Assembly (NCBI GenBank): GCA_964187785.1
Contig: OZ076409.1
Location: 26,662,001-26,726,000 of the forward strand
Direction of reading: 5' to 3'
DNA length: 64,000 nt
Source of the DNA: Amphiscolops sp. MND2022
Taxonomy: Eukaryota
The notes under the pieces are model-generated. The model did no database searches. It had not been told where the DNA came from and worked only from the letters and a program-made list of their open reading frames with translations. This document shows positions 13,303 through 43,356 of this stretch, piece by piece. Numbering within the stretch: position 1 is the first letter of the stretch; each line of letters starts with the position of its first letter. A program made the translations under genes and the position numbers.

Positions 13303-13549
13303 CTGCCTGGGAGATGTTCCTGGGGAATGCGAGTAGAGATGTGGCATCGTTGAAGGTCCAGCAGTTGCCGTAGATGTCGTTCTGGAACTCCTTGAACCAG
13401 TCTTTGGAGCAGGCCTGGCCGTCGAACGCGCACTGAATGATGAAGTCGTTCTGCTGGTGGCCCAGCTGCCTCAGTTCTTCTGCGTTGATCATTCCCCCCA
13501 GACCGACCACGTCAGAATAGTCCTCGCGGATGGACGAGTGATAGTACAC
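13303..13549 (-). CDS. DEG/ENaC exon (finger end / beta-ball region)
   Basis: atacag|GTG acceptor (phase 0), G|gtgcgt donor (phase 1). LGHQQNDFIIQCAFDGQAC and YGNCWTFN are conserved DEG/ENaC motifs. Confidence 0.93.
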
Positions 13550-14375
13550 CTGTATACAGATAATAATGCTCATGCACTTTTCATGATAAAAACCCACTAA
13601 GGCTTGTTGATGGTTACGGGAAAGAAGCTAGGATCTCATGAACGGCAGGCCGACTTCAAGTTATTTCAAAGCCCACCTGAGACTATGTAGTAATTAACTC
13701 AAAAATTGAGCACAACTTATCCAGGATGAGAATGAGATGGAACTAAAAACACCTGAAAATATTTAATTCACGTCTATTTTTGGACTAAAATGCCGTTATG
13801 TGTTTAGTTGGTATGACCGAAAAATTGCCAGCAGCGTCTGGGACAATTAAGCAATTCTCCTGTTAATCGTCTAGGGGGCGTGTTCTTCAAATGATTTAAC
13901 TTGGGGGGCTGTGTTTCTTAAGCTACTCTGTTGTTAATAAGGTCCTAGAAGCCATTCAAGTAAGTCATAAAGTTGGCTGTGTTCGATAGCAATCAGTTGT
14001 ATAATTTAAGAACGTTCGCTGCTTCTTTCAAGTTCAGGGGTTTTCTCAAAATGAAATCCTGAGGTAGCCAATGGGCACCCTTTTAGTCCAGGAAAAGAGC
14101 CTCCAATTTTCTCGTGGAGTATATCAGGTAAAATGAACTGAAAAAAATGCTTAGAAAGCCCAAAGAAACCCGAACAACAAAAAAAATTGTGCTATTATCA
14201 GCTTAACAGATAGCCCAACAATTTCGCTAAAACTGTTAAAACAAAAGACTCAAGTTTTCTTCGAAAAACATCCATCTTGCTCAGGATTCTTCTACCTTAT
14301 AAAACGATAACAACAATGAAAACGGAAGCAGGGAAAAATGCGGAAATTTGAAATGATATCACAAATTGTTTTAAC

Positions 14376-14559
14376 CTTCCATTCTTTGTTAGAGACGGCG
14401 GCATCTTTGGATTCGCCCAAGAACGAGTGGATGGAGTCTTCTTGTTCGTGGCAGAAGTGGCAAGTGTGACGACAGTTGTGCTTCATAAACGAGTAATGGG
14501 GGTCACTAATCGAACAAAAACCCTGCTTTGCCCACTGCTTGCACGACTCGTACATGTCT
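14376..14559 (-). CDS. Exon encoding ShK (ShKT) toxin-like domain
   Basis: tttgcag|A acceptor (phase 2), AAG|gttaaa donor (phase 0). DMYESCKQWAKQGFCSISDPHYSFMKHNCRHTCHFC matches the ShKT pattern D-x4-C-xx-W-A-xx-G-x-C...M-xxx-C-xx-T-C-xx-C. Confidence 0.85.
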
Positions 14560-17500
14560 CTGCAAACCACATCAAACAAAATTACACAAAACCAAAACAA
14601 TTTTATCGATGTCCACCGGTGACTACAGGGTCAACTGTAGGTGAACCACCAGTTGTTATGCAAAAGGTGCGACTGCCACCTCAGTGCTGCACCAACGGTC
14701 TGTGATTGGCGGGCCATCATTATAGTTTAATTCATGAAAAAAATACAATCAATTGAATCCCTAGCGTTTTTTTCAGTCTATTCTTGGGTTAAGTTGAACG
14801 CAGTTTCAGAAACATGTTAAACTTCATTCAACTTACAAACCTCAAATAAACAGGTTTGTTTAAAATGAGGATTATGACCTGTAATTTGCCTGATTTGTTA
14901 TTTTTAAAAACAATTAGCTTGAATTGAACGGAAACCAATTTTAAGGAAAACACTTTCAGACATACACGACAGATTTACTCCGCTTCGACGCATGAAACAT
15001 AACAATCCCTTACGGATACTTTTGTAGTAAATGAAACCTCAAGCTGGGAATGAAACCAACTAGCGATAGAATTCAAAAGCGTAGTATAAAATTAATGGAA
15101 TCGGTTATTTTGCGCCGCCCAGAAGCACCATTTGGTTTCCAATATTAAAGGCTAATTTCCGTTTTAACGCTTGAGCTGCAGTCAAGTGGGTTGTTCAATT
15201 GATCCGACTAAAAATGATCGGTAACAAGTGATTTTAATTGCAAAACTGAATTTCCCGAAAATCAGCGATTTCTTCATCAGTTTGTGGGCTCGCTTGATGA
15301 CGTGGCCGTAGGACTGAACTTCGATAAACTGTTGAGTAAAATTTTTTCAAATAAAGAATATTGTTTTTCAAATATAAAGATAAAATAAGTTCGTAGTTTT
15401 TCACTCAACAATTGTTTAATGAAATGCATAATCGAAAAACAATTCATATATGCCTTCTGTTTTGTATATACATATGGAGAGATATGAGCTTCTCAAGAAA
15501 CAGTGACTGAAATTGAAAATTTGGCAAAATTTTCTGATATTTTTGAATGCATGTAGTAAATAGGTTTAGAGCGAAAACTATACTTAGCGAGCGTCATAAA
15601 GACAGAACGGAGACGGAAAAACTTCTTGTTTGCACTTAGACCCTCTACATCAATTGCAATTCACCGCAAATTAATATAATTGGATAGTTTAGGGACATGC
15701 TCAAGGGAATGATACTTCCAATTTTCATCGAATTTGTTGCTTAAAGTTGGCTTTGTGATGAAAATTGAAATCATTTTCCCCGCGTAATCTTCCATGATAC
15801 AACAGTCAGCGGCAAACTTGAAATGCTTCCTAGGTTATTCTTAAATTCCGTGGTCTTTATCAGTCTGAAAAATTCGATTTTCAGTTTTAAGAATACTAAC
15901 TAGAAAACATGCCTCTGGCAATCTTGTCTTGTTCTGAACTTGCATAACTGTTTCGACCTCAAATTTAACTGGATTGCGAAGAAACTTTCAAATTTGATTT
16001 CACATTTGAGCAATGTTGAAGTCGCCAAATCATGTTCTAAGTCTTCAGCCGTAAAATTGCATCTAATTATATTTACGGGCCATTCGGCCATTCCAGCTAG
16101 CTCCATCAGTTATGTCTAAGTCGAACAAAGATGAAAAACTCGAGCCATTGGTAATTAACTTGGTAAGAGAATCAATTGGCCAGGGGTAGAATAGTCTACT
16201 GAAGCCCCTCCCCTAGAGCTGAAATAGCAGAAGCGCGTCTCCGCAAAAAGGCTGAGCACTTCAAAAACACTCTTTTCCAACGATTTTGCGAAATCACATT
16301 AATCATTCTGATATTTACTCTTTTGCTCAATCACAATCACCGGCGGAATTTTTTGTTGTCAAAAATAACCAGATTTTCGGGCAAATTCAATTGAGGAATG
16401 ATTAGCAAACGCTTTAAAGGTCAATACGATCACCATTTGTTTGACGAAGATCAATTTTGAAGCAGTATTAAAAATTTTGACCATTTTTTTCATAATAAAA
16501 CCATGGATTTTTAAGATTGTCCAAGGCATAAGAATAGAATATTAGCAAATATATATTTGCTGACTAAAACAGATCATGAATTTTTATATTCTCCTCCCCA
16601 ATTTAATTCAACTGTATCGGCTCTTTTTGTCAATAATGCCCCCCTCACATTACAGGGGTTTAAAAACTCAGTTTTTACCGAACTTATTGAACTAAAAGAA
16701 CTTTTAAAGATTTTCTAAAACACTCTAATTATCATTATTTTGTTGGAGTCACGTAATTTCTAACAGTCAGCTAGTATTTTATGACAATTTTTCAATATTT
16801 TGGCTTGATTTACCTATGTGGGCGGGGGGCTTTTGGTTGGGTGTTGTCAGGGGGAGAAAATTTTCCACTGCATCATAGTGAAGAAACAGATTCAATCTCA
16901 AAATTGATATTCAGACACATCGGAACGGGGGATTTCAGAGATATTGTTCATTATCAGCGTCGTTTTCATTCTGATTAAGTGAATGATGCTCAAATAAATT
17001 CATCCATTCAAACCATCTTTCAAATCTTTCAACAGAATTTCCTGTCTCTGGATACTTGAACACACAATTTTCATCTATCCATTGAAATTATAATTTGAAT
17101 GACGCAAGCAAAATGGTTGATAAAACCAGTTCAGAAAACATTGATAGCCTCTTTTGTCTTTTGAGCTGGGAGGTTCATCAAAATTGGCATTCTGGACAAC
17201 TTTGAATGACAGATGAAAAATCTCACAATGAAAAAGTTTTTTAAAAAATTATTAGGTGTTAGTGTGAAGGTGACGTTTTTGACGTAACCTCGGCAGAACA
17301 GGCTCTGGAAACTCCATTTTGACACTTTAAGCATGACCAAATATGGAATAAACGAAACAATACAAACAAAATCACAAATCACGGCAGTTCTGAAGCAGCT
17401 AGCATGAAGATGAGAAAGCCTTCTAATCAGCCAAACTAACAAATTACTAGAGAAGAAGAAAGTTATTTCCCCATTACAGCGGGGTGGACGCCAAATAAGC

Positions 17501-18026
17501 AGATCTGCTTTTCTAAGTCGAGGCCTTTTCGGATGCTATTTCCTCATAGCAGGCTATGGTACCATTTTTGCAGCCGAGTGGTTAATGTGAGTTGCTTATC
17601 GTGAGTTTGCCCGAACGAATTGGCAATGAAAAGTTCTTAACATTTGTCGAACGGGGTCCAGCGTGTAATTCCTTGGAGGAAATGCGTCCGAAAAAGTACG
17701 TTCAGTTTGTTGAATTACTTCGGGGATAGTCCACAAAATGGGTTTTGTTGATTAAATTTGAATTTTTAGCCTGAAATGCGGTATCAATTTTTCATGGAAG
17801 GGTTTTCAAATTCATGGGAAATTAATTTAGTTGCTTTGATCCGTTTCAGTTTTGCGTGTTCCTGAAACGGGGGGTCCGATTTTTTTTCAAAACCTGTTTG
17901 GTAGCAGTTCTCAAAAAATACCGCTTTTGCACTCCGCTTCTTGTTCATATCAACACTCAAGTTTATAGAAAATGGTACCCTTTTTGTGTTTCATCTTCCA
18001 GTCTGGATTGTTTACTCGTGATGTTG

Positions 18027-18297
18027 TGTACTGACCTACATTAATAACCAATAGTATTTAGATGTTTATAGAATGTTCTAGAATGTACATTTATTTATTA
18101 TTGAATGATTGTAAATCTCTACTCCCTCAGAGAGAGAAAGCTAATAATCAGTATTCGGTTGACTTCCTTTTTGTTCTACTACTACCACCTCGAACTAGTT
18201 GTAATAAAGTTAGCTAGCTAGCCTGTCTCTTAGCCGCTTTTAGTAGTTGTGAATAGTACCACCAATAAAGCAATAACAACACTTTGAAAGCAGCACA
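18027..18297 (+). repeat. 5' LTR of element 1
   Basis: tgtactgacc...gcagcaca, direct repeat of 36131-36401; contains AATAAA. Confidence 0.97.
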
Positions 18298-18300
18298 ATT

Positions 18301-18312
18301 TGGTGCGACTCG
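18301..18312 (+). promoter_or_regulatory. Primer-binding site of element 1
   Basis: TGGTGCGACTCG 3 nt after the 5' LTR; resembles a tRNA-His PBS (TGGTGCCGTGACTCG) lacking CGT (inference). Confidence 0.65.
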
Positions 18313-20167
18313 TAAAATGTCTTGCCTTTTTTCCTGGATGATTTCTCTTCTCTCAACAATAATACAAATACCACGCTCCATCTTTGAAATTCTCTGGAAT
18401 TGCAGTGAAATCTTTCTAGAATTTCTTGAAAATTTAGTCTGTGACTTTCTGAATTTCATCAATAAATACATCATCGTTCGAAATACAATTTCTCCACTAA
18501 AACAATTAACTCAAATATAACAAATTTTCTTCACTACCGGTTTATCACGTTTTCTAACACGTCGAAACGGTTTCATTTCAGACTGATTTATCCATTGTGA
18601 CACAGTTCTGTTTCTCTTCTCTTTCCAGACTGATTTATCCGTAAGTGACACAGTTCTGTTCTCTATACTGATTTATCACAGCTAATCCGGAAGCTTGTTG
18701 AAACAGTTCTTTGATGTTTGTCTGGTTTATCAAGGTTTTCTAACACCTTTGAAACAGCAACATTTGTCTGGTTTATCAAGGTTTTCTAACACCTTTGACA
18801 CAGCAACTTTCTTCAATCCTGCTATCTTGAACGTCAGGTGGACTCCTGGTGTAATAGTTGACTGAGTGCATGTACAGCTCCACTCACCTATAAGCACATA
18901 CGCCTCAAGATCAACTTCGTGTTGGCAGAAAACCTGGATTTTCTACTTTTACGTTTCGGATCCATTTTATACAAAAAATTCTTACAAAATAGTTTTCAGA
19001 AATAGTCTCTGAATACAAAAAAAGGCAACCAAGACTATCTACAAAAAGCAACCAAGCACTATTCCATTTCTTTTCTTATTGTCGACAAACAATACAAATA
19101 ATTTCACAAAACTTAATTAATAAAAGTAACTTCAAAACTTGAACAACACAAGAAAAATAACAACACAATTCACCCTCAATATTATATCGAATACTTTCAA
19201 CAGTAATAATTTTAACATAACCTACAAAACAATTATTTTAACAAAATACCACATACAATTCTCACAATTCTTTTGCCCTAACATCAAAAGTAAGGCATGT
19301 AAAAAAACAGACACTGTAAAGTTAGTTTTCTACTTTCAGGCACCCACAATTCCAATCCCCTCCTGTAAGACTTAGACAATCAGACAGCGTTACCAGCTCA
19401 CTCTGATTCTAAGACTGACTAAAATCGTTAGTTAAGTGTAAACGTCTTTAAAGAGAATCGAGAGGACATCGAACTACGTTCGAATCTTCAAAATTCTCAG
19501 GAAGCAAAAGTAAAAGTAAAAGAAACAAAGATCAAACTTTGATCTTGATCAGTATTGATCAGACTTTGGATAGTGGACGTTGATTGTTCAGAGTTCCACT
19601 CCCTTAGTCTTAAAACACACAACCCACTTAAAATTAAAACAACCTTAGTTTTTCTGGAAGTGTCAGTAACCTTATGTTAGACACTTTAAAGTGATCCAGA
19701 CTTAAAATTACATTTAGTTTCTGTTAGCAATCCTTGAGGTTGAATACAGATCCTACTGCATCCGCTTCTTTCTTCTCTATCCAAAACTATTAACATCCCA
19801 AATAACTTCAAATTAAAATACAAATTATATGAACCCTAATATATACAATCAAATAATTTATCCTTTCAACTTTTACATTCCACCAATTAGCTCCCTTCAG
19901 AACCCTACATCAAACGACTTTGAAAGATTAATTGAACGATATCAACAATATTTTTTCTTTATCATAAATCAACAAAGACATTATCCAAGAGCTCCAACTT
20001 AGAAAATTTCTATAAAAATTAGTTTCAACGTTTTAATCTTCACATTATAACATGTGGGAAAAAGTTACCACAGTAGTACTTATTACAACATACACGTTTT
20101 GTTTCTTATTTATAGTTTTTGTTCTCCTTGAAAAAATACTTACAGTGATAAGAGATAAACGTTAAAA

Positions 20168-23100
20168 ATGTCCTCAATAACAACCCCTCTACCCTTCCAA
20201 ACTCCCGTCATTAAAAATGCAAAAGTTGTAAAATTAGAACTAAATCCATTCCTACAAAACATTATTTCACATTATACACAACCACTCCCTTTTGAAATGA
20301 ACCTCACACAATCGAAACAATCCCTCTTATTAGAGAACATTTGGACACATATCTCTTCTATATTAGATATAAAGTTTTAACTATCACCGCAGAATACCCA
20401 GCTTTTCAAATCTCCTTTCCTCAACAAAGACCTAATTCATCTCATATACAGAAGAACAATAAACCCAATTAACCTCCAAGTTCCTATTAAACAAGTTTTT
20501 CACGCTTTTCTAAACAATGTGAAAGACCACAACCTAGCACATGAAATTCCAAAATTTAGTCCAAATGCACTTGACGACCTTCAACGATATATAAACAATT
20601 TCGATGTAGAAATTATTGAAAGATTAGTTGATCCTGAAGGCAATCCTCATCATTGGTTACAAACTGATATACTACGAATTCAAAATTTCCTCTACCATTA
20701 TTTCAAAGACTTAACATTAAATGACCAAATAATTCCTCAGATCAAAGTAATATCTCTATTCCTCAGAAAATACTTCAGATTTAATTATCAACTATTATGG
20801 TCACAACAAGATCAATCTGCTTTTACAGCATTCCCAGATCATCTTACAGTTGACGAATGTTTACCATTCATCATCAGTGAACAAAATGAACATCCTTATT
20901 TTCATAAACCACAATCGATTACAAAACAAACTTTAGATTACATACGTTTTGATCCTTTATTAATTACAGAAAATGATCTATTTGCAGACAATAGACCTTA
21001 TCACTATGAACAAAATTCTCAAGTTCAGCAAAATTTACATTTTAACACTAACAATTCTACCGAAGATGATAATACCGATCAGGAAAATACACTCCAACAA
21101 CAACATCAAAATGAAATAAATAACGATAATGAGTTTACAACCCAAGAATCTACAATTTCAACACATAATCCATCACAAGCAGGAACATCAACATCAACAC
21201 ACACTCAATCCTTTAGAGTTCCCACTAGAGTTGTAAATCAAAGACAAAAAACACATAGTCCTCAATCTCACTTAGATACATCTCCAAACCGTAATATAAC
21301 TTTCAACCTTCCATACACGGATGAAACACACGACGAAACCCATTACACAATACATGATGAGATTCTGACTGCAACTAGTGCTCAGAATACTTCTGTTAAC
21401 GTTGCATCTCCAACAAGAACTCTTTCTGATTCCACAAGATACATTACTCGACCTAGATACGATCCTCCATCAATCCCTTTGCTTTCCGATCAAATAGATC
21501 GATTTCTTCAAACAACAATTTTAATGATAATCCCCAAACTTCCAATCAAAATTACGATCCATTTAATTATAACTTTTATCCTCCATCAACCACAACTACC
21601 AATACAAATATTAACCAAAATTACTCTCAAAGTAATACAACTTCAATAACACAAAATCCCTTCATACAATTATCACATACCACTGCTTCACAATATACAT
21701 ATTCTCAAAATCAAGCAACTTCGTATCCTTCCACTTCTTATTCTAACAACGTACAAGCTTCTCAAAGGAAACTTCAAAACCCTCCACTTACACATATACC
21801 AACTGATCCTTTGTATCAAATGCATCCAAATCCTAATCCTAATCCAAATCCATTACCACAAAATACAATTCGAAATATACCTCCTCAACTTACACAACAA
21901 TTAGCTCCTACACTCCAATAATTACCAATGCCACAAGATACCTTTATGAACATGTCCGCTTCAATACCAGAACCTATGGAACCTTTTGATGGTTTAGACC
22001 ATTCTTATACCCCTGAAGAATATCTACAACAAGTCGAAGCTAGATTAACCTTCGCTATAAGTGAAGAACCTCAGAATAATCCTATAAAATACAAATCATG
22101 GCATAACAGACGCATGGCTTATATACAATGTTCATTAACAGGAACAGCTCTCGATTGGTACACTAACCTTCATATATCATATAAACAACAATGGAATTCC
22201 TTTGTACATTTATTCAAAAAACAATTTTCATCTCAAAAAACAGCTTACTACGCCCAAGTAGAAGCTATGTCACTCATGAAAAAAGATAATGAAACACTAC
22301 GCCACTTCGCCCTTAGAGTACAACAATTAGTTAAAAAGGGATGGTGTCATGAAAATGCAGCTACCATAAACCTCAAAAATAATGAAATCTTTACTAAAGG
22401 AGTACCCAAGAAGTTAAAAGATTTTGCCCATAAACGACAAGTTAAACATGTATCAACATTACTTGAACCTTCAATACTATTTCACACACTTGTTAGACAT
22501 GTCGATTCTGAAGATATTGCTAATGAAAAAATTAGAACTAATGACTTAGCTCTAGAAATAAACAAAGTATCACTTGAAGATGATACAAGCAAAAAGGAAT
22601 TTGAACATGAAGATCATATATTGGTTACTCAATCTGGAGACCCAAATAACAAAAGCAAACCAGCTTATAGAAAATATTGTTCCTATTGTCACAAAAATAA
22701 TCATAGTATCTCAAATTGCTATCAAAAACAACGCGATGATGAATACCAAAAATATAAGAACCAAAGATCACGAACTCCTCAACAATCCTTTGTACAATAT
22801 TTTCGCAGTAAACCTAACAGTTCACAAGAAAATCGAAATGACAATACAAATCCTTACTCCTCCGATAATGATCGTAACAAACATAATCAAAACAACTATA
22901 ATGAGAGATACCGAAATAATGATAGATATCGTAGCAATAGTAGAGAATATTCGCAAAACAACTACCGATCTAATTCTCGACAAAGATATTATAATCGATC
23001 TCGAAGCCCATATAGATCTCGATTTGATAATTATTAACAAAGAAGAACTCCATCTAGATCTCCATATAGATCTCCATATAGAAACAATTCCAATTACAGT

Positions 23101-23400
23101 TATAACTCTCGCTCAAGATACAGATCTCGTTCTCAATCACAAGGAAGTTCCTTAAAAAGATATAATTATCCATATAGATCTCCATCAAGACCTAGAGATT
23201 TTAGATCACGATCTAGAACACCCTCACGAAATAGACCACAAAACAGAATAAATCAAGTAGACGTTAAATCCACAAAAGACAATGATAGTACAAAGTTTGA
23301 AATCCATACATGTCAAACAACTGAAATAGCTAATACAATCACTCCTTACAGTTGGTTTTATCCATTATATATTCACGCTTCTGAAGCCAAGGATAATATA
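20168..23400 (+). pseudogene. gag: Extended gag (N-terminal domain, N/Q/T/S-rich linker, capsid, CCHC knuckle, RS-rich tail), disrupted
   Basis: ORFs 20168 and 20519 share a frame (one stop); frameshift near 21480; capsid-like PFDG...LTGTALDWY...W..FV.LFKKQF; zinc knuckle CSYCHKNNHSISNC; stops at 21919 and 23035; in frame with protease. Confidence 0.85.
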
Positions 23401-26400
23401 TTACCCTCACAATTAGAAATCTTATTCCTCTTAGATACAGGAGCATCCATATCTGTCTTGAACTTACCAACATTTCATGTGATTTCCAAACAATTAAACA
23501 TCAATGTTCCAACCAATTTTCAAAACAAAAGAGCCAAAACTCTTACAGTTGCAAACCAAACTGAAGTACCAATAAGACACTATATTTCGATAACCTGTTT
23601 CACTGAGGTAAATCATCAAACGCGATCCTTCAATATAGATTTTGCCGTAGCCAATATCAAATACAACATTCTTGGAACACCCTTTTTCAAAAAACACATC
23701 CAAAATATCGATTTTCAACAAAATATTATGACTTACACAGAACAACATCCAAAGCTCTCAACAAAAACAACATTTTCCACATTTACAGAAAAAGATTATC
23801 CATATATTTCTTACATCTATACTATTAAATGTAAAGAACCAATCCACTTTAAACCAAGGTCAGGAAAAACCATACATTTCCCAATTAAAAACTATTCAAA
23901 TCTACATTTTGAACTTGAAGATAATACAAAATTCTATCCAACAAACCCATATACATATTTCTTACAAAAATTTAAAAATATTTTTCATTTCTCAGATATG
24001 ATAGTCAATGAAAAAAGCAAAGACTCTTGTGCAACTATAATTCAAAACTTTACATCTTATCCAGCAACAATACCACGAGGAATCATTGGATACATAGAAA
24101 TACCTATTACTCAAACAACTCCTCCTCACTACAGAGTTAATGATGTAAATTCACTTATTCACTCTGTAATACACGCGTATCACCCTGATACCACAACTCC
24201 GATTAAACCAACTCCATATGCAGATATGAACTTATGTACTAGGGTAACACCACAATCCCTATTAGAAATAAACAAGATAGAAGTCAACGACAAAACACTT
24301 CAACTCCCTATACCTTCTATTACAGGAAACCTTCGACCCTCAGATAAAATTCGAAAAGATTTTCCTCCATTACCCTATTCTACAGAAAACCAACAATTCA
24401 TAAAGAAATTTAACTTTGAATACTCGGATTTATCCGATACAGAATATGTAAACCTCTGCAATATTTTGATTAATATTCAACATTGTTACGCCCAACATAA
24501 GAACGACGTAGGAAAAATTTCTACTCCATTCCGAATTAGAATAAAAGATAATTGTAAACTTCAAACACAAAGACCTTCAAAAGTACCAATTCACTATAGA
24601 GATAGACTAAATAAACTTTTACAAGAACTCGAAAAATACAACATTATAAAGCAAATTGGTTCCACTTCAGATGAAAAACACACCATTGGAACAACATTTT
24701 TAAACCCTTTAATTATTATCCCCAAAGGTGACTCAATAAAAGTTGTTTTAGACGCAAGACGTCTAAACTCAAATACCAACCAAGAACTTGAATCTTGGCC
24801 TATTGAACCTTTAGCTCCTCAATTAGCTAGAGCCAATAAAAATATAAATCAACTATTGATCTAATGTATGCCTATGCTCATACACCATTAGATGAAGAAA
24901 CAATTAAACTTACAGGATTTTCATCCGGTGACAAATTATACGCCTTTATCCGTGGATTTTACGGATTAAAAGGACTTCCAAACTTTTTCACAAAACAAAT
25001 GTCAACTTTCTTCAGATCACTTTTAGACAAACGTTCTGCGTTAGTTTATATAGATGATATTTTATTACTCGCCAATGAAAAACAAGAAATGTTTGAACTT
25101 ATAAAAGAATTACACACAATAGCTTCTCGAGAAAATCTCAAACTTGCACCCGAAAAATCCTTCTACATGTTACTCAAAGTAAAATTCCTTGGACACGAAA
25201 TTAGTAACAACACAATCAAACCAATTCCATCTAAAATTGAAGCCATTAAAATAATCCCATCACCAAAAGAAAAGAAAGATATTATGCAATTTCTTGGCAG
25301 TGTTAACTTTTACTCAAAATTCATTGAAAAACTTCATATAAACCTTAAACCATTGTATACACTACTACATGATGATGTTAAATTTCAATGCACACCTGAA
25401 CTAGAAAAAATATTTCAAAATGTTAAAAATGCAATGACAGCAGACACTGAATTAACAATACCCAATACAACACATCCATTTTTTATAACAGTAGATGCTT
25501 CATTAGTAGGTTTAGGCGCAGTCTTATTCCAAATGAACGAAGAAAATAAAATGAGAGTAATCTCTTACAACTCCAGAATTCTTAATACACAAGAACAAAA
25601 ACTTTCAACTTTAGATAGAGAACTTCTCGCAATAGTTTACGCACTACAAATATATGAATTTTTGATCATTGGATCTCCTCATCCCATATACCTCTTCACA
25701 GATCACAAGCCTTTACTCCATTGTTTCGCAAAGAAAGGAAATCTTAGTCCTAGGTTCTATAGAGCACAAATGCAATTAACCAAATTCTCCAAATTAAAAA
25801 TCTTTCATACCCCTGGAAAAAACTTAACTGTCGCAGATATGCTTTCACGAACGTTTACAAAAGAACAGTTACAAGTACACCAATTACGACACAAACAATT
25901 ACCACCTCAAATAGATTTTTCTATCATGAAAGATAATCAACTCAAACCAGTACATTATTTAGTAAAACATGAAGAAATCAAATATAATCAAAAGAATGAC
26001 TGTCATCCTATTCTTGCTGACTATGGAGACGACCAATTCTCTATCCGAATAAATAACAAAGGAGAAGATATACACATAAAACCTTTAGATTCCTTCTCTT
26101 TTCATTCTATTGTCCCATTTGAATTCAAATATAAAAAGCCTAAAAAAACCAAGCAAAGTCTCTCTTACAACAATCGACAATTCTTAATGATACTGATAGT
26201 CTCAGTGACGAAGACGAACTAACTCAATCAAATAACATCCAACATCAAAACTCAGACATATTAAAGGAACACACACTTGCTATACAATATCCTACCAAAT
26301 CTGATTATTGTAAACAACAAGTTCCATTTTTTGATCCATCTTTTTTTAAATACAAAAAATATTTTACTTATTTCTTCCTACCAGAAGATACACAAATAAC

Positions 26401-28169
26401 CATTGAAACAATAAAAACTCAACAAAAACAAGACACTGTTTTACAAAAGGTTTACCAATGGATACTTAATAATGAAAGACCCTTACAAATAGACCCAACA
26501 ATTGCAGCTAATTCTTTCTTATTAGTATACTACAAAATTTTCAACCAATTATATATTAACCATGACACAAACATTATCCATATAGATTATCCTAATCTTC
26601 ACGATTCCAATCCGAATCAAAGAGACAAAATATGCTTACCATTTAAACTCTTCCATGCAGCTTTTAACAAACTTCATGCTCATGGACATTCAGGTATAAA
26701 AATCTCCATCAAAGCTTTTACCCAATTTTATTTCATACCATATTTGAATAAACGGATGTCAATATTCATCCATGATTGTATTGAATGTCAACAAAATAAA
26801 CATAAACCAAAAAATACAAACTGCATCCATGCAAACATTCTCAGAAAATGCTTCATATTTCAATTATCGAATATCAATGGACACAAAAGGACCTATAAAC
26901 CCGCCATCAAATCAAAACTCATACATTCATGTTATAGTAGACGCTTTCAGCCACTTTGTAGTAACAGTACCTATAAAACAAAATAATGCTCAAAACGCTG
27001 TTAACTCAATACTACATCATTGGATAACAAAATTTGGACCCCCTGTATATCTAGTTACCGACAGTGGAACAGAATACATTAATTCAGAATTTGCAAATCT
27101 TTGTACAACAATGGGAATTAGACATTCACCAAGAACTCCTTATGCACCATGAACAAATGGTCTAGTTGAAAATCAAAACAGAAATCTTGGAACTCATCTC
27201 AGACTTTTCTTACATAACACCCCAGAAAACTGGTCTACACAAGTTCATATGTATGCTTATGCACATAATTCACAACCACTTTCTGAAATTAACTTATCTC
27301 CTTATGAAATAGTATTTCATACTGTACCCAGAATTCCAAATAATTTTGAACTCAATCTCCAAAAAGATACATATAGAAAATGTACTTCCCAATATTGTCA
27401 AGAATTACCACTTCATACACACTATGACAAATCAAATTTAAACCCCTTTTTCCATAAAATTTTATCTAAACCGATCCCACAATGGATCTTAGCCACTGAA
27501 ACTGCTATGATACAAATATACCACACAGTATATGAAAACACAAAACGAAAAATTAATTCTTACGCGTATTTTAATAAAACATACCACAATCCAAGACCCT
27601 TGGATATCGGTACATTTGTACTGAAAACAAATTTTCTCCATGTTCATTTTTCTGACAAATTAAAACCTCTCAGAATTGGACCATTCAAAATTTTTAACAA
27701 AATTTCTGATATAACATATGAAATTGTTAATCAAGATGGTTACACATCTCACATACACAGAAACCATTTAATTCCTTATTATCCAAAAGAACCAGTTATT
27801 TTTCCTTTCCTACAACAGTATAATCCTCATTTATTCAATGATAATTATTCAAATATAAACGACCAAATAATTAACTCCGATGGAAACCCACTTAATGACG
27901 AAGATCAATTTTCTTCCACAACATCTAATAAAGAAACGGATATACCATCCACAATCGACTTCCAACCAGAGCATTTTAGCCAATATTCTTCATTTCCGTA
28001 CCAACAAAAAGAACAAATTACTCAAAATACCAACATAGATAACCAATCAGATATTCATGACTATGATATCTTTATTAACCCCCGAAGACACTCCTATAAT
28101 AAATACAATTTCCGCCCACAACCAAGAAAAGACTATCAACTTTTCCTTGGAGAAAACGATATAATTTGA
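23401..28169 (+). pseudogene. pol: pol: aspartic protease, RT, RNase H, integrase (disrupted)
   Basis: LDTGAS (23431-23448), RT YIDD, RNase H ITVDASLVGLG / ELLAIV / TDHKPL, integrase HHCC, SMDTKG / VTDSGTEY core and GPF motif; frameshifts near 24841, 26150 and 26810, TGA at 27150. Confidence 0.96.
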
Positions 28170-28359
28170 CTTTCTCAAAAATCCTGCTGAGATACGGAAT
28201 ACAGAAAAGAATACACAAAGAAAATTTGAAAGGAAAAGAGAAAGTTTGAAGCTTAATGTGGAATTGAATGAAAAATACTTCACAAGAGATAATAAAAGAG
28301 AAAAGTCCTAATTGATATAAAATTATAAACTAATATACAAATTGAACAAACTACCATAA

Positions 28360-29759
28360 CACAAAGATTCCAAAATTGATAGACATATTCACTCACCATC
28401 ATCAACCACAAATAACTCATCTTCTAGTTCAACACATTCACTCCAAAGACTACCTGAATATACAGCATATTTAAACTCAGATACAGACATACTGGATTCC
28501 TCATCCTCAAATCTTAGCCCATCCGCTCCTTATTCTCCTGATAGAGTACCAACAACACCCACAATTACACCTATACCCCAAACTCAAACACTAGTAATAA
28601 CAACTCAATCACAACCTACTTCACGAAATCTAACATTTGCCGAAACAAAGTCACCAATTTCTGTCAATTTTAAATAGACCTCCTCTTCCACCAATTACTA
28701 CCACTCGTTCCGTTCATATCCCTGATCCCAGCTCAGTTCTACAATACATAAATTCTTGTCCACATAAAGTACCAACTGCAACGAAAACAAAAAGAAAAAC
28801 TCCTTTACCTACATTACCACAAAACCTTAATTTATCATCATCAAGTAATACTCCAATAACATTCTTACCAGAACCTTCATTGAAATCACCAGCAAAGAAA
28901 TCACAACAACACCCAACTCCTTCACCATCTGAACTAAGTTCATTCACATTTTCTCAAATATATCCCAAGCTTGAATTAGAACGTGTACATTCCACCACCA
29001 CCTCTTCTTTAACAGATTTATATCTTAAAGACAAAGATTCTGACTCAACTGCTAGTCCTAGAATACCAAGACATAATTATAACCTTCGATCTCAGCAACA
29101 AAGAAATTTTTAAGAATTAACATCTTTAACTAGTTCAAGTCTAACTCAAGACTACTTAGACAGCACGCCCAACCCAGATTGGACACTCCTTCTCTTTCCT
29201 CATCTCAACCCACTATTCAATCTTCTTTTTCACTACCATTCCAAATCACATCAGGATTTGAAACAGCTTCTCTTCTCTCTGAAGACCCAGCAACTAAATC
29301 AGATAGCGCAGCTAATTTTTCACGAGTTTACTCGCCTAGTTCAATAGCATCGAACTCTTCTACACAATTACTTGAATATTTTTTAGAAGATTTCTCAAGA
29401 CCTCCAACACGAAAGTTAACTCAAAAATTGTTCGTACACTTAACGAAGATCCTCGATACACGGTCTTACCTGTACGATTTATAAACAACAGGTCACTCTC
29501 AACTCAAATGAAACAAAGAGAATTACGAAGATTACAAGAACAACAACTCACATTAAAATTTGAAGTAGAAGTCACATTCAATTCGTTAGGACCTCACCCA
29601 TTCTCGCTTTCAACAAGAGTAGCACACAAAACAACCCCATCACCATTCATAGTCACATCCATTTCTTACCTTTGTGACGCAGAAGTACCTGAGATTAGAA
29701 CAGGACATATAAACTTTTTTAATCCTTGTTCCGGACTTACTTATAGAACAAAATTTTAA
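28360..29759 (+). pseudogene. Accessory Ser/Thr/Pro-rich ORF between pol and env (fragmented), function unknown
   Basis: Consecutive reading frames 28360-28679, 28637-29113, 29179-29484 and 29508-29759 with continuous S/T/P-rich composition; contains PSAP and PPLPP. Confidence 0.6.
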
Positions 29760-29761
29760 CT

Positions 29762-32340
29762 GATATTTTAACCAAGAACCAAATTACCCTTACCCTATAC
29801 TTAATACAAGTTGTTAAATACACATATATAATACATATAGTTCACTCCTTCGTTCAACCTTCAACTGTTCCTAAAGTTGACACAACCAATTCCGAAAATC
29901 ATATTTCAGACAAAGACCCTAACATTTTAAACTTGATGGTATCCCATTATGATTGTGCAAAACAAAACAACCTAAGACAATTCAGTTTATTAAATGTTGA
30001 ACCATGTAAACAAGCACCCTCAGATATACAACACACAAAAACCCAAGCAACAGTTTATGTTAGAGCAAAAGCCAAACGAACAAAAGCCTTTAAATGCGAA
30101 GCATATATAAAGATTGAAAAAGTCTGGTGTTCACAAACATTCACATCTAGTAGACGATATGATCGTTTACAATGGGGACAAAACACATTAGAACTTCCAA
30201 AAATAATGGACCCTTTTGAATGCAAGAATATGGTAAGATATTTAAACGCAACTGATAGCGAAGAACTAAACAATTACTATATACAAACTCTTTCTCATTG
30301 TTTGACGGTAGTAACTATCAAAACACAATTGAACGAATTCAAACACAATTCAGGGTAAAAAATTAAATACATGGAATATTGGAACCTTCGTATTCGATGA
30401 AAATTATCCCGACTGGATAGGTAATGTTACACAAAATACATACTCCAGATGTCGATCAGACCGAGAACATTTGATTACCCGACAAAGTTGGAAACTTAGA
30501 ATTGTTAACACCGCAATAGAATATGACAATAAAAACAATCAATTAATACACGACGGACACATATTACCATGTTATCATTCAGATGGATTTTGTAAACCAA
30601 CGACCAAAACTCCATACACATTAACATGGTTTGATGCAAAATTTTGCCTCATATTTCAACTTCAAGAATTCATTGGTAGAATGACACGAATCAAAGATAG
30701 ATATTGGATTGAAACCGATACCTTCATTGAAACTTCAAATATCAAAAAAGAACTTCAAACTGAAGGAATACAAGGAACAAGATATCCAAATGTGAAAACA
30801 CCACAATCAAAAATAAGCAATCCAAGCCTTTCTCGATTTGAAATATACCCAATTGCACAAACCTTCTGTGGAAAACCTGAACCATTATTCTCAACACAAT
30901 ATGATGACATCTTTGTTACATACTTAGATGGTTTCAATATGAACACAGGACTACCAAAACCACACTCAATAATTGATCAAACAATTAGTGGAAACATAAA
31001 ATATGATGACTCAAATAAAAGGTATATATTCCCTGCATTGAATATATCAAATAATTTCGCCACTTTAGATTACGATGCCCATATTAATACAAAAATTGAT
31101 TTCACAATAAATCATGTATTTAAATCCATGACAGTACAAGAACTAAACACCCTTCATGCAATATGTGAACTGGAAAGAACTCAATTGTTAACAATCTTAG
31201 CTATGTCAGTAAAAAATCCTCAATTAGCCGGTTTTCTTTTAACTGGAAATCGTAGTAACTTTCTCTACGTTGAAGGATCTACAGCATGGCTGTATGATTG
31301 CCCTCATTTTATATCACCACTATACAAAGCAGATAAATGCTTTGATAGAATTCCCATACATTACAGAGAAACGACAATGTATGTTGATCCTATAACAAGA
31401 CAAACTTTTAACTACGCAACACCAATTGAATGTGGAAATAACCCACAAAATATAATTGAATTAGACCCAGACTCTCTTAACACCAGAACCACTCAAACGA
31501 GAAGCACCACAAATGTTTAAACCTACCCAAATTAAAACAACAATCACTCCTAATACAATTACCGCCCAAGATGCCGGTATATACTCAAATGCAGAATTAG
31601 ATCAATTCTGGAATAGAGTTTTATTTGCTAAACATTCAGACACAACCCTTCAATTACTTGGAAAATCATTAAGCTATGATTTTATTACAGTGCACAATGA
31701 TAAACATTCATACTCAGGACATAATCCTTATAATCATTTAAGGATTGGAGTACATGACCACTTGTTAAACCTTTTACCACTTTTTAATCCTGACTGGTTC
31801 AGTCAAGCATTCATTAATTTCTTTGGATACCCATGTTATGTTTTAACACAATGTGGAATTTAGTTTTCAACATTTCTTTTCATTAGAGAAGTTTTAACAT
31901 TTTTACTCAAATTCTACAGAACAATTAGCATAAAATACAATCTCCAAAGTAACATTTCCATTTTGAGTTCAATAGCCCATGGATTTTTTAATATAGTTAC
32001 ATCGGAAATGGTAACCGATTTAAACAATACAGGAAAAAGAAAACGGATATATACTAAACACAAAATTACAACAAGTGAAAATGACAATATACTATTGCCG
32101 GAAAAAGAAATAAAAAACAAACTAAAATACTCCGATAATGACTCCCCTTATTTACCTCCGAAATATTCCAGTAAGAATTCAATATTTCAATCACCGCAAA
32201 AGACACACCCAACTACTGTCAAGACACACCCAACTACTGTCAACGATATTAATTCTCAGGACTATGACCAAGTAGTATCAAATGTAATAGCTATACCGGA
32301 AAGTCCTGCTAAAGTCTTTATTAAATTTAATCCCTCCTAG
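29762..32340 (+). pseudogene. env: Envelope glycoprotein, class III fusogen (chuvirus G / herpesvirus gB-like), disrupted
   Basis: Hydrophobic signal-like stretch ITLTLYLIQVVKYTYIIHIVHS, then HYDCAKQNNLRQFSLLNVEPC; INTKID...ICELER...NPQLAG...WLYDC...CFDRIPI...YVDPITRQ...TPIEC; C-terminal TM around 31805-31915; frameshifts near 30290 and 31475, TAG at 31861. Confidence 0.85.
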
Positions 32341-32795
32341 CTAAACCAAAATAAACAAATTAACCTCAAAAAAAAGTTCAAAAATAGATCAATAAAATTC
32401 TTCTCAGTTTAACGTTCATTCAAACCCAAATTCTCACTCGGACCAGTCTCCCCTTTTCAACTCAACAAAAATTCACTTACCTATCAAAACTCAGCTCTCA
32501 ACCAGAAGACTTCAACTGGATTTTCAGTCCTCCTAAAAAAGACCGAAATTACAGAAGTTTCTATTCCTGGAATAGATGCCACTGTGATTGTTGATGTTTT
32601 CAACCAACTGTTGATGTTTTCAACCCACCATTGACTCAGTTATTCCCATATTGTAAGTACAATTTAAACTTCATTTTTAACAAACAATTTAATGAATAGA
32701 AAAGACATAACGAAATTTTTTCTCATTATTAAAAATAGTATAATCAAACGTTGTAATAATTATTTTAGCTCTACAAAAACACACAAGTTTAAATA

Positions 32796-34088
32796 ATGGA
32801 ATCCTTGCCCGAAATTGATGTAGTTAATTCTAACCCCTCTGAATTGCTTGCACCCCCCTTGAATATAACCATTCAACAAAATGTTAACGAAGATAATAAC
32901 TCTTCTTCAAACTCTCAAGATCTCTTAGAAACTATTCCTATTGAACAAATAGATCAAGTTAACGCAAGATCTCAAAAAAGAAAGTACCCAGACATAACTG
33001 CAGACAAACCATTTATGGAATCTGGCGCTTGCCCTCCTTTCATAAAGCCAATTAAACAAGATGAAGATAGAGATTGTGAATTAGTTTCTATTCTCTCATC
33101 AAAACAGTTTACCTTTCAATCTCAGTTAACCTCGTTATACATGATTCCAACAAAATACAAATTTATCATCAGAGAATTTAAAAATGATTATCATACTTCA
33201 ATTGCTTCAAAATTGATCACCCCATATGATTGGTGGTTGAACAATAAAGTGAAAATTTTTTCACTCCAATATAATTTCCTCAGACCATCTCCATATGATC
33301 TTCGAACCGAAGAAAATGACGCAAATTTTCTACCATACTAAATCAAAAAAGCTCATCACATAACTTATCAAAAGTTTCTTCAATATAAAGAACCCAAAAA
33401 TTATATATTCTTCAACTCCAAATACACCTCGCCATTTACTTTCAACTCAGAATACTTAATAGATCATACCAAAACAAAAGGAAAACTTAGAAATTATGAC
33501 CCGCTGAAACAAAGTTTTCTTTTCCTTCCGAACGATAACCCAAAAAGACCAATCATTGTACCACAAGAATACCTCATCTTGAACGACGATTCGTTATTAC
33601 AAGAAGATATACCTCAAAATATATCTGATCCTCTTCCTCCACTTCAACATATAGCCTCTCAACCTTTAGGAGACTGTGAAAAATCTTATTTCTACGCAAT
33701 GACCAAAAAAGGATATTCAAATAACGAATTAATTTTCATTATTTCTCACCTGCTTTCACTTCTTACAAATGGAAATCATAAAGAACACAAAAAGACAAAA
33801 CCAGAATTGCCAAAGAAAACTAAAAATGACATTCCTCAACCACAAAGTTTTCGCCCAACTGACGAATTACAGAAATATACCGAAATTCTGAACATCATAA
33901 AACCTTATCATCGTCCGAACCGAGATATTCTTATAACAATCGCCGAAATCGTAAATACCCTTGAACAAGCTCGAAGCATTATACAAAATATCGTATTTGA
34001 TACGACAAGAATTAGCCAATCAGCTTTGTGTATTCGCATATCTTTAGACGAATTCAACTACACAATTGAAAAAATGCACCGATCTTAA
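32796..34088 (+). pseudogene. Accessory ORF downstream of env (~430 codons, single internal stop at 33339), function unknown
   Basis: ORFs 32796-33341 and 33579-34088 share a frame and the intervening codons are open; preceded by tattttag acceptor-like site at 32761-32768. Confidence 0.7.
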
Positions 34089-34494
34089 CTGGTAATTATG
34101 GGATAATCACTTTAAATTGTTAACACTTATCACTTAATCTCTTAACAACCTGTCAAAATTAATTGAGTCTACACGCATATACCTGCTACGCAGGATTATA
34201 GTACATATTTGATATTAAAACATTTCTTTAAAATAAAATATTATAAAAAATTTCAATCATGACATAAAAATTTTTAAAAAAATTTCCCAATTGCTCCTCC
34301 TTTTAATTGACCGATTTCAACAAATAAGTACTTATATGAAAGATATTTAAAAATCCTTCAAAAAGCTTCCAAAATACAGCAACTTAATTCTTAAAATTAA
34401 AAAGTTATAACATCACAAATTACATCAAAAAACTGTCAACTACGAAATTCTATTTTCAAAGAAACTTTATTGTAAACAAACTAATCTATTTTAG

Positions 34495-35087
34495 GTGAAT
34501 ATCGTCACAACTGCTTCTTCATCATTCCTTCCTCCTCTCAAGCCCTCCATCCAAAAAGAATTCCAACGTATCTTCCACAAAATTCAACGAAATTCTTCAT
34601 ATTCTTCAACATGACAACTCTTCATTCTGGTGACATAGATTGCCCGATAGCTCCTTTTCTTTCAATTTGTTCAGCTCGATTGCGATCCTTGATTCTGAAA
34701 AAGCATTTAACAACATTAAATGCGCAACTCAAAGCAGATAAAAAGGCTGACCCTCATCTTACAAGGATGATATTGCTCAATATGTTACAAATATTCCAAA
34801 TTACACAAATAAATTTTGACCAATATCTTCAAATTCATAAACATCCTGATACATATTCAACCCAACGAGACACCGCTACCCAAACAGAGCATACGACCAT
34901 CAAACCCAAACGTTTAATGCGAAGTCTATCTAACAGAATGCGTTCTGAAATGGAAAAACAAACTCTAAATTCCTATTGGCCTTCAAATGATAACGACGAT
35001 ACTGATGAAGAACTTCAAAAAGACCCTCCAGAAGGACGTCTAGATGATAATTATCCATACAAAACGTATACTTACGTCTCTTTCTAA
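34495..35087 (+). CDS. Second accessory ORF downstream of env, probably a spliced exon, function unknown
   Basis: Branch point CTAAT (34481-34485) + tattttag|GT acceptor; frame open from 34497 through ATG 34611 to TAA 35087. Confidence 0.55.
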
Positions 35088-36130
35088 TATCAACAGATGA
35101 CATCAACAGCACTCGTCCACTCCCATATTCAAATCCAACAATTGATCGTCAAAACTCAGCACCCATCTACAACTTCATCGCCGCCCAACAGATGAACCAT
35201 CTTCATCCATCTGCTGACCCATCTTCATCCATCTGCTGACCCATCTTCATCCATCTTCTAATCTTCAATCTTCAGCCATCCAGTCCCAGCCGAAGAAGAT
35301 GATTAATAATCAATAATAAAGGAAACTCAAAAAACATTGTGCATGATAATATGTCAAAAACTTTCAAACTTATATCGAAAAATTAACAATGTATTTATTA
35401 TTTCAAATTTCATCCCACCCATATTTATTTGCCCTTAAAATCCTTAAATTCACACCCATACCGATATTTAATTGCTTATTTTTAAAAAATAATTAATAGT
35501 TATTATTTTTCGGTGCTATCCTATCCAAAAAATTCACATATGTTAACAATTAATCTTTTCAAATTTCAACAAAACAAGTTCAAAAATAGATCAAGCACAT
35601 TGTTCAAATCAGATTCGAATAATGACAGACCCAAATTCTCAAAGTTTTCAACGTTTGTTACATAACAAACCCGCCAAAGTTGATCACAACCTGATATCTT
35701 TTCAGATAGTTTTCACACTTGATGAAAAAATTTTAACAACAATAATTTTTCAATGACTCTTTAACCTTTAACTCGTATGATGTTTGCTCACGTTTGTTCA
35801 ATGCGAAGTTCATTCAAAGACTTCGACAGAGGCATAAAATTGAGCAACTACTAGTTCAAAAAACAAGCCGACGAAAGCATAGTGAAAAAGAACACTTTGA
35901 CGCTTTTTGAACTGTAGTCGCACCTACGAGGTGTCACTCAAAAATTTTGACAAGTCGAGGTACACCAATGAGTCGAACTTACACCACTCTTAAAGAGACT
36001 TATGCCAATAATCCATCAAATGAAAAATGTCAACTAGCTGAAACGCTAAAAATATTTAAACAACCTTTTTACTCGACTTTAATTCATGATGCTACCTTGA
36101 AATTTTATTTTCTTTAAAAACCGGGATGGA

Positions 36131-36401
36131 TGTACTGACCTACATTAATAACCAATAGTATTTAGATGTTTATAGAATGTTCTAGAATGTACATTTATTT
36201 GTTATTGAATGATTGTAAATCTCTACTCCCTCAGAGAGAGAAAGCTAATAATCTGTATTCGGTTGACTTCCTTTTTGTTCTACTTCTACCACCTCGAACT
36301 AGTTGTAATAAAGTTAACTAGCTAGCCTGTCTCTTAGCCGCTTTTAGTAGTTGTGAATAGTACCACCAATAACGCAATAACAACACTTTAAAAGCAGCAC
36401 A
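36131..36401 (+). repeat. 3' LTR of element 1
   Basis: Direct repeat of 18027-18297; preceded by purine-rich aaaaaccgggatgga (PPT-like). Confidence 0.97.
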
Positions 36402-37588
36402 GTTGTCGAGCTCTTCAATTGAAATACGCCTTCGGAAATGCGCCATAATCAAATACTGAAGTATTTCTAGGATAAGCTCGAGAAAAGAGATAAGAATCAA
36501 TGTTTACTCTCAACGTAAGGTTACTGTTATGATGCAAGCATTTAGAGTATAGGCTAAGTAGTTGTTAGTAAACAAACTAAAAATAGCAACGGAGATATAA
36601 TGTTGTTTATCAACAGTGTCTTCTACATTCCCCCTTCTGTGATTGGAGGAGAATCATCCAATGGATATCCATTGCGGTCCTTTTTGTCGTTATGTTCGGT
36701 CGTCCGTCCCTGGTCTGGTGATGTTTTCTCCGGTGTTCGTGAGAAGCGTGTTGTATTTCCGGTTGTGGGTAAGTTGTACGTCTTGGGCGATTCACTGGTC
36801 GTCCTCTTTGTCCTGTTCCGGCATTTCTTTCGTGCACTCCGGAAGTGGTGACAGGGTGATTCGTTTTGTTGTGTTTCCTGTAATCAGATTGGTTAACTGA
36901 GTCAATTAATATAACGATTGGGTTTGTTTTCGTTAACCTCTTTGACCGGCGTAGGTTAGCATTTTTTAGTTTTTCTATGTCTTTTTCTTTTTCAGTGCTA
37001 GAACTTAGATTACTTGCTAATTCTAGTTCTGAGAACTTGCTAATTCTGTTTTGTTATTATAAACTGTTACCTTACCGGAATTGTCTCTGATTTGGATCTC
37101 TTGCCCCGACTGTAGGGAGTCTCTTATTGTTTGGTCTATGTCGGAATCCGACATTTGGTCCGTATTTATGGTTAATGGTCCCATCTCTGAGCTTTTTGTT
37201 TGCCTGGTGTTTTGCCTGAGGATGCTGAGGCTGTGCGGTCTCTTATCAGCCGTGGCTTGCCTCTGCCATTTGTTCCTGGCCGTTTAGTGGTGGGCGGTTC
37301 TGGGCTGGTATCCAGATCTTCTTTCGATTAGGATTTTTCGGGAGTAGTGGTGGCTTTGTTTGGTTTCCTTGCAAATCTCCCGTCTGGTCCTCTTAGTCCG
37401 GTCCCTCTGTTTGTTGGTTCCTGTTCAAATGTATCAATATGTTTGCTAATAAGTTTACGGTGAATAATTTTATTATCTGAAGTTGTCACTCTATGTTTTG
37501 TTCCATTGACTGCTGTTTTTAAGTGTTCCGAGCGTGGGCTTTCAAATTTTCCCTTCTCTTTTTTTGTTCGATGAATTGAAACGGATAT

Positions 37589-42753: not shown

Positions 42754-43356
42754 TGTTTTGTTTATATTGCTCACTGCGCCATGAAGTATTTCTAGGATAA
42801 ACTCGAGAAAAGAGATGAGAATCAATGTTTACTCTAAACGTAAGGTTATTGTTATGATGTAAGCTTTTAGAGTATAGGCTAAGTAGTTGTTAGTAAACAA
42901 ACTAAAAACAGCAACGGAGATATAATGTTGTTTATCAACAGTTTTTTCTACAAATACAGAGTAATAACTTTCGTCAGTGCTGTACGCAACTATTACAGTG
43001 ATGAATGTTTTCCTCCAGATTAAAACACCACAGATTAAATAGACCTTTCCAACACAAACTTGAATTATCTCAACTGTTACTTCATTTCTGTGCAACATTG
43101 AGCTGACCGCACAACGCATTTTAATCTTTTTACCAAATATTTGTTTCTCTAGAGGATCGAAAAAGTCGCCGACTGACTTCTTTGGCGTTGAAAGATTTCT
43201 TTCCTTGACTTTGTTTTCTCCGAAAGGGTCGTTGTTCATAATATTTGGATATTTTACAACCATCTTGAAGTAATAAGAGCTGAGATGACATTTTTCTCAA
43301 AAACAGATCCTACGGAAACTTTGAAAAACTATGAATGGGGTGTCGATTAGAGGCGT

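Follow-up and report, generated by a model that had tools for sequence, protein, structure and literature searches.

The window analysed here is a 64,000-nucleotide stretch from Amphiscolops sp. MND2022 (contig OZ076409.1, positions 26,662,001 to 26,726,000 of the forward strand). It contains an 18.4-kb Gypsy-type element that raises the following question: does a long terminal repeat (LTR) element of this size possess five genes of its own, or does part of it represent passenger DNA and chance reading frames? A first-pass annotation of the window had proposed an organization like that of a complex retrovirus, with gag-pol, open reading frame (ORF) X, env, ORF Y and ORF Z. The analyses presented below make it quite probable that the element is a decayed member of a five-gene Ty3/Gypsy family, one that likely spreads from cell to cell in enveloped form and likely produces X from a CUG or AUU start on the env mRNA.

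The element occupies positions 18027-36401 on the plus strand, as defined by comparison of the LTR pair and by the flanking target site duplication (TSD). Its features are as follows.

18023-18026, no strand: left TSD, GTTG, 4 bp.
18027-18297, plus strand: 5′ LTR, 271 bp, TG..CA, from LTR pair comparison.
18298-20167, plus strand: leader, 1.87 kb (1870 nt), AUG-poor, with a median of 2-5 ATG per kb.
18301-18318, plus strand: primer-binding site (PBS)-like site, first letters TGG; sister copies G465a and H551 share its first 9 nt after their LTR.
20168-28190, plus strand: gag-pol, 2676 codons at the family level, from the ATG at 20168; in several pieces in the window copy.
28360-29751, plus strand: ORF X, 489 codons, ATG-less, with a candidate AUU start at 28375; broken in the window copy.
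29774-32340, plus strand: env, 858 codons, PF24664; broken in the window copy.
32796-34088, plus strand: ORF Y, 430 codons; a single internal stop in the window copy.
34611-35087, plus strand: ORF Z, 158 codons, fast-evolving; open in the window copy.
35088-36130, plus strand: non-coding trailer, 1043 nt, ending in an atypical polypurine tract (PPT; 36116-36130).
36131-36401, plus strand: 3′ LTR, from LTR pair comparison.
36402-36405, no strand: right TSD, GTTG, 4 bp.

The LTR pair and TSD of the first-pass annotation were confirmed, as was its count of about 6 differences in 271 sites: the LTRs, with TG..CA ends, are identical at 265 of 271 positions, with 6 mismatches and no gaps. The PBS and PPT that it listed were recovered in part. 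A TGG-led PBS-like site is present, for which no primer tRNA match was found (6 of 13 pattern matches were scanned in the final search), and the purine-rich PPT site is atypical; the sister families described below carry a similar one. All of the genes do lie on one A/C-rich strand. The sense strand is rich in C and A along the whole element, with a GC skew of -0.15 to -0.54 over 18-36 kb and a positive AT skew over 19-36 kb, and the flanks differ. The five-gene layout holds, with its sizes, at the level of the family and not in the window copy, in which gag-pol, X, env and Y are interrupted and Z alone is unbroken. A Pfam scan of 19 natural open pieces inside the element (21 were scanned in total) yielded capsid, reverse transcriptase (RT), RNase H (RH), the zinc finger and core of integrase, and PF24664 in three pieces.

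The 18-kb element is a member of an abundant and large genome family, designated family A. First-look searches of the species' own genome yielded 1582 candidates with the LTR as query, 1529 with Y and 1322 with Z (candidates, not copy numbers), and the best 40 of each were scored. Nine copies were fetched from 12 other LTR pairs, those spanning 4, 21.5 and 34 kb being left out. These nine span 16.5-21.0 kb (six at 18.3-18.6 kb), eight have clear 4-bp TSDs, and within each LTR pair 1-8 sites are mismatched. All nine contain X, env and Z, and eight contain Y. A further 20 copies were picked by matches to Y or Z, and are hence biased toward those genes; 17 continue into gag with short gaps at most, and the other three are truncated or rearranged. 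Copies in the family A sample are 92-97% identical.

Diverged relatives were identified in the same genome with PF24664 as the query (5700 candidates, 68 scored). Eight loci were fetched, and three more were reached via diverged relatives of Y. Family B (L136-L139) is identical to family A at 76% in RT-RH, 62% in env, 43% in X and 41-42% in Y; the corresponding values for family C (L128-L131 and L140-L141) are 67, 52, 34-37 and 39%. Both families measure 18.1-18.9 kb where both LTRs were captured, and both keep the family A gene order, with a single gag-pol frame (2634-2731 codons), an X that again lacks ATG (412-478 codons), env, Y and an ORF of 150-305 codons at the Z position. Between two family C copies at a dS of 0.9-1.2, dN is 0.081 for gag-pol, 0.085 for X, 0.059 for env, 0.067 for Y and 0.284 for Z. 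Further relatives were listed from ENA only (the best 120 of 275 for Y, the best 120 of 147 for X and all 48 for env). One of these, Y relative P0135, is only 44-50% identical to its best matches in the species' own genome, and the Y gene is therefore likely present in another family or genome.

The first-pass annotation had suggested that intact relatives may remain in the genome. This did not hold for the sampled copies of family A, where gag-pol is open in 0 of the 23 rows that cover it (X in 6 of 29, env in 2 of 29, Y in 15 of 29 and Z in 16 of 29), although some of the breaks may be assembly errors. It did hold in the sister families, two copies of which have all five frames open; a family C copy with open frames has identical LTRs.

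The frames were counted column by column in a 31-row alignment of 30 loci. Gag and pol form one continuous frame. Z, given earlier as about 197 codons, measures 200 from stop to stop but is better read as 158 codons from the ATG at 34611, because the 42 codons upstream of that ATG carry no selection signal. Selection was assessed by comparing the ratio of non-synonymous to synonymous change (dN/dS) for variants common to at least three copies with that for private variants, using a Fisher test and an assumed transition bias of 3; sites, not independent events, were counted. The shared-variant dN/dS was 0.07 for RT-RH (P=2e-19), 0.06 for integrase (P=2e-19), 0.09 for the env ectodomain (P=1e-22), 0.14 for Y (P=1e-8), 0.25 for Z (P=2e-3) and 0.32 for X (P=3e-6). 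Private variants were neutral (0.8-1.3), and ten shifted-frame controls gave 1.2-5.1. It is apparent that all five ORFs are open and under purifying selection at the family level (0.06-0.32, against about 1 for private variants and most controls), a check that the first-pass annotation had proposed. Shared frameshifting indels number 8 in the 8 kb of gag-pol, 1 in X, 4 in env and 0 in Y and in Z; the four spacers contain 5, 12, 6 and 36.

Some observations weigh against five selected genes. Two of 15 spacer controls reached P<0.01, and Z (P=0.002) is therefore the weakest gene; it also hardly aligns across families (E 0.011 against family B and no match in family C). The integrase tail is unconstrained (dN/dS 1.17), the env tail (0.37, P=0.09) is not significant, and in family A the first 140 codons of X carry few signs of selection (codons -40 to 140 have 13 synonymous and 19 non-synonymous shared variants). 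Even so, selection on gag-pol, X, env, Y and Z is regarded as very likely.

These data bear directly on the possibility that the 28-35 kb region is passenger DNA or a secondary insertion and that X, Y and Z are open merely by chance, on a strand of biased composition. Biased strands do yield shadow frames: two overlapping frames in gag (21369-21904, of 178 codons, and 22622-23251, of 209) remain open at the family level. Those two have dN/dS values of 1.33 and 2.01 and are likely shadow frames without selection of their own, whereas X, Y and Z are selected. The first-pass annotation had also asked whether other copies miss the 28.3-35.1 kb region. The block is colinear in the LTR-chosen copies and is found in the two diverged sister families as well, and a secondary insertion is therefore ruled out. 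The passenger or chance-frame reading is already refuted for X and Y, and as a whole it is scarcely credible.

The gag-pol product comprises, in order, an N-terminal extension of about 600 aa, capsid (PF03732), a protease motif (DTGA), RT (PF00078), RNase H (PF17917/PF17919) and integrase (PF17921 and PF00665). Within the extension (window 20168-21900), the first ~270 aa, which lack a Pfam match and fall in a region under selection (0.25), share about 40% identity with the sister families; a matrix-like domain is possible. With the pol of family B as query, similarity was ranked as Ty3 (E 4.7e-44), 8r0s (1e-26), foamy virus (2e-18) and human immunodeficiency virus (~1e-4), a ranking and not a reference tree. 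TG..CA LTRs, a 4-bp TSD, gag followed by protease, RT, RNase H and integrase, and an RT closest to Ty3 all identify the element, as judged from its sequence, as Ty3/Gypsy, with a Metaviridae-type RT, and not as a true retrovirus. Membership in the Retroviridae was rejected, given that the RT is nearest Ty3 and the env is not a retroviral Env. The proposed lineage of invertebrate endogenous retroviruses with accessory genes is accordingly retained for its accessory genes, which are selected and keep their order in three families, and not for its retroviral label.

How X is started is of particular interest. No methionine is encoded in any of the four X frames tested, and the median ATG density of X (0-2.7 per kb) is comparable to that of the 5′ leader (2-5 per kb), against 14-23 per kb in the other genes. 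At average methionine frequency, its absence over 412-489 codons has a probability of 0.002-0.012 per family. Out-of-frame ATGs in X, as observed/expected, are 2/4.8, 3/6.1, 0/3.9 and 1/1.9 (of the three counted in family B, one is probably the env start itself); numbers in the remaining ORFs lie close to those expected or exceed them. Starting translation from a codon other than AUG needs A or G at -3 and G at +4 (PMC3542737). The sequence ATC CTG GAT is found at the X start in four of five sister copies, within a 10-mer that occurs once per element. Two family C copies become alignable 17 nt upstream of this CTG, with 15 amino-acid changes in the 20 codons before it vs 4 in the 20 after. In family A, AAA ATT G occupies the matching place in 27 of 29 rows. 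A CUG or AUU start for X is thus judged probable. Because X is nearly AUG-free and a strong-context CUG lies at the onset of coding in the sister families, X and env likely share one mRNA, through a non-AUG start combined with leaky scanning.

There is evidence on the other side. The per-family depletion of out-of-frame ATGs is modest (P=0.04, 0.05, <0.001 and 0.30), the CTG site is missing from one of the two family B copies, and two weak-context ATGs are conserved within family A X. An X AUG might instead be supplied by an upstream exon through cis- or trans-splicing, with env on its own spliced RNA and the scarcity of AUGs reflecting an env leader and low-complexity composition. Spliced env or accessory mRNAs are known in Gypsy elements, the CERV protein of Cer1 being made from one (PMC10309623), and YAG acceptor-like sites lie no more than 320 nt upstream of X in both family C copies scanned, as well as upstream of Z in families B and C. 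However, the three families have no YAG in a shared position close to the X start, strong acceptor-like sites are expected at about 1.2 per kb by background (the scan was not above it), and neither the onset of the coding signal at the conserved CTG nor the missing methionines fit a spliced-in start. Splicing of this kind is considered unlikely, and the non-AUG start is preferred. A GTAAG donor-like site in the leader was private to one of nine rows. One acoel trans-splices 30% of its genes (PMC9911081), and host trans-splicing, if present, could supply sub-genomic RNAs.

Two readthrough schemes were rejected: an X-env fusion, since in-frame joining occurs only in some copies, through a 19-nt duplication, and pol-X readthrough, since the relative frames differ among families. 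In the pol-X spacer (28191-28359), short upstream ORFs surround a TGAATGAA-like motif that recurs in family B; the arrangement may serve reinitiation or shunting.

The env product matches PF24664, the Monjiviricetes fusion glycoprotein (E 1e-22 and 2e-27), which we take to be a family of class III fusogens. It has a signal peptide, 18-19 cysteines and, by hydropathy, C-terminal hydrophobic segments; no furin site was found in the family C env, no PDB match was obtained by sequence, and the window copy has no ATG at the family start. Chuvirus-like glycoproteins adjoining gypsy pol are described as resembling gB (PMC13524379). It is rather likely that env would act as a class III fusogen for cell-to-cell entry.

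Alternatively, env and the accessory genes could act inside the cell, in anti-silencing, RNA export or targeting, the element being an intracellular transposon. Extra non-env ORFs are reported as common in LTR elements (PMC5408684, PMC6431247), and Chary and Hayashi likewise deduce function from intactness (PMC13524379). Against this, constraint on the env ectodomain comes close to that on RT (0.09 vs 0.07; dN 0.059), and env retains its signal peptide and membrane segments. An intracellular role appears improbable, and enveloped spread between cells would be the likelier mode.

X is predicted to consist of an S/T/P-rich N-terminal part and a folded C-terminal domain of about 140 aa. Conserved islands in the low-complexity part include YPxL (4/4), YNLR (4/4) and PSAP (2/4), and PPxY is found in the env tail (4/4; 24 of 29 family A rows); neither PSAP nor YPxL occurs in the N-terminal 862-1100 residues of Gag in the four sequences. 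PTAP, YPXL and PPXY are late domains for the endosomal sorting complexes required for transport (ESCRT; PMC2958808, PMC2768365), and foamy virus Gag tethers to nucleosomes via conserved Y537 and R540 (PMC6042332), a Y..R spacing shared with the YNLR of X. The latter likeness is one of four residues, and the other X and env motifs are also four-residue matches, with a chance expectation of 0.04-0.22 per protein. It is tentatively proposed that X may be an assembly adaptor with ESCRT late-domain motifs and a nucleosome-anchor-like motif. As an adaptor it might resemble a matrix protein or p12 of murine leukaemia virus, an analogy that the motifs suggest.

Searches for known families gave little. 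The model of the X C-terminal domain (predicted local distance difference test, pLDDT, 73) has two helices and a five-stranded sheet; compared with known structures, including the mononegavirus matrix fold, its best VIA Z was 3.7, with no Foldseek match at E≤0.001 and none above background. The single-sequence model of Y was poor (pLDDT 32). Pfam contained no family for X, Y or Z (one sub-threshold match to Y had E 0.035), the ESM Atlas no usable match for Y 70-335 or X 345-489, and PDB none for the X profile and only designed coiled coils (E~0.004) for the Y profile. By these searches (for Z, Pfam alone), X, Y and Z would represent new protein families. By analogy with CERV, Y and Z are guessed to act as soluble proteins that regulate either viral RNA or host defence, a doubtful assignment.

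The proposed cycle would run as follows. Full-length RNA would serve as genome and yield Gag-Pol. On a bicistronic sub-genomic RNA, X would be initiated inefficiently at its near-cognate codon, while the other ribosomes would scan past AUG-free X and reach the env AUG. Additional sub-genomic RNAs would be required for Y and Z. As a class III fusogen, Env would mediate entry from cell to cell, X might supply the late-domain motifs missing from Gag together with a nucleosome-anchor-like motif, and Y and Z might act as soluble regulators.

Comparison with known systems indicates which parts are new. Gypsy elements with a gB/chuvirus-like env are widespread (PMC13524379). Like the gB-type errantiviruses of that survey, the element combines Gypsy pol with a downstream chuvirus/gB-like glycoprotein, multiple copies, LTRs and a PBS, and their class III env with signal peptide and transmembrane segment has its counterpart here in the PF24664 match and hydropathy. 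Those viruses are described as having three ORFs, whereas the present element measures 18.4 kb, with a POL-ENV gap of about 1.6 kb that holds X. Intact copies >98% identical are a mark of that group; the sampled copies of family A are 92-97% identical, with gag-pol open in 0 of 23, and one family C copy has identical LTRs and open frames, the best 40 matches per search being covered. The survey prefiltered for regions of ≤10 kb and, outside insects, POL-ENV gaps of ≤1 kb, and its main text discusses no accessory genes, extra or fourth ORF, or splicing (PMC13524379).

Burro/GYPSM1, a planarian Gypsy, is similarly giant, with thousands of copies, an env related to mononegavirus fusion proteins and accessory coding; it exceeds 30 kb and places env between gag and pol, in frame, within a polyprotein of ~4900 aa, while here env is separate, downstream and flanked by three stand-alone ORFs (PMC6431247). 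Cer1 of Caenorhabditis elegans offers, in CERV, a functional model (Rev-like RNA export) for Y or Z, but it has one accessory protein, from a spliced mRNA, and the likeness is one of described function (PMC10309623). In rice tungro bacilliform virus ORFs I-III, an AUU-started ORF and scanning through ~895 AUG-free nt to the downstream gene were shown experimentally; this is a plant pararetrovirus, and the analogy is one of mechanism only (PMC3542737). Complex retroviruses and fish foamy-like endogenous retroviruses (up to 17 kb) also have accessory genes around env (PMC6431247), but the RT here is Ty3-like and the env not retroviral. Troyka differs in its CG..CG termini and 3-bp TSD, against TG..CA and 4 bp. 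Extra ORFs located 5′ or 3′ of env have been described, as have larger Gypsy elements that carry additional ORFs (PMC6431247, PMC5408684). No described family with the same ORF set, and no five-gene cassette or non-AUG accessory gene in a Gypsy element, was found in the literature searched, Repbase and GyDB lying outside its scope. Env-bearing Gypsy elements and extra ORFs are thus each known, and the fixed five-gene cassette, of which we found no description, is the new part.

Other env-bearing Gypsy elements were observed in the genome. A distant clade (L122-L127 and L132-L135; G000 C8, C10, C11 and C7), about 17-18 kb and 43-47% identical in RT, was placed by pairwise identity and an 11-row env tree, because the RT tree covers six rows, from families A-C only. 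It has its own extra ORFs on either side of env, among them a TRAF/MATH-domain gene (PF21355; E 8e-22, 8e-23 and 3e-6) and a conserved ORF of 150-230 aa, and 0-1 ATG in the 570-970 nt upstream of env in the three copies checked. The MATH/TRAF domain of Burro (PMC6431247) is a likeness to this clade and not to family A. A motif common to Y and the small post-env ORF of the clade was unsupported (hhalign probability 0.3%). L120-L121 (G000:C1:78591137-78603318) is a 12.2-kb Gypsy with LTRs 99.4% identical, env immediately 3′ of pol and one 519-aa coiled-coil-rich ORF after env.

In the remainder of the window, exons of a host DEG/ENaC channel gene (PF00858) and a ShK-like domain exon lie on the minus strand at 6014-14630, the element being ~3.4 kb beyond the last exon seen. 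A second, decayed Gypsy-like element of ~6.5 kb (36457-42952, minus strand, 171-bp repeats at 95%) starts 55 nt past the 3′ LTR. Minisatellites (15/16, 14 and 29 bp) and dispersed repeats resembling miniature inverted-repeat transposable elements occur at 273-459, 43756-43908, 56793-56952 and 7123-7227.

A more far-reaching interpretation may be offered, though it is rather unlikely to hold in full: a Gypsy lineage would have gained complex-virus architecture independently of retroviruses, with a CUG/AUU-started, matrix- or p12-like X that is co-translated with a class III fusogen and has taken ESCRT budding and chromatin tethering from Gag, and with two regulators encoded downstream. This lineage would stand among several 17-19 kb enveloped clades, a further one having the TRAF/MATH gene, that account for a large share of the genome.

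Taken together, the three extra selected genes, one of them likely CUG/AUU-started, indicate an element whose architecture resembles that of a complex virus more than that of an ordinary jumping gene. It belongs to a Gypsy lineage of invertebrate type in which three accessory genes, of apparently new protein families, form a fixed set kept by selection. Its size exceeds the prefilter of the main survey of env-bearing Gypsy elements, and a conserved non-AUG gene would escape standard annotation. The presence of several diverged, high-copy families in one genome allows tests of the ways in which LTR elements acquire roles in budding, entry and regulation, and so bears on how retrovirus-like complexity evolves.

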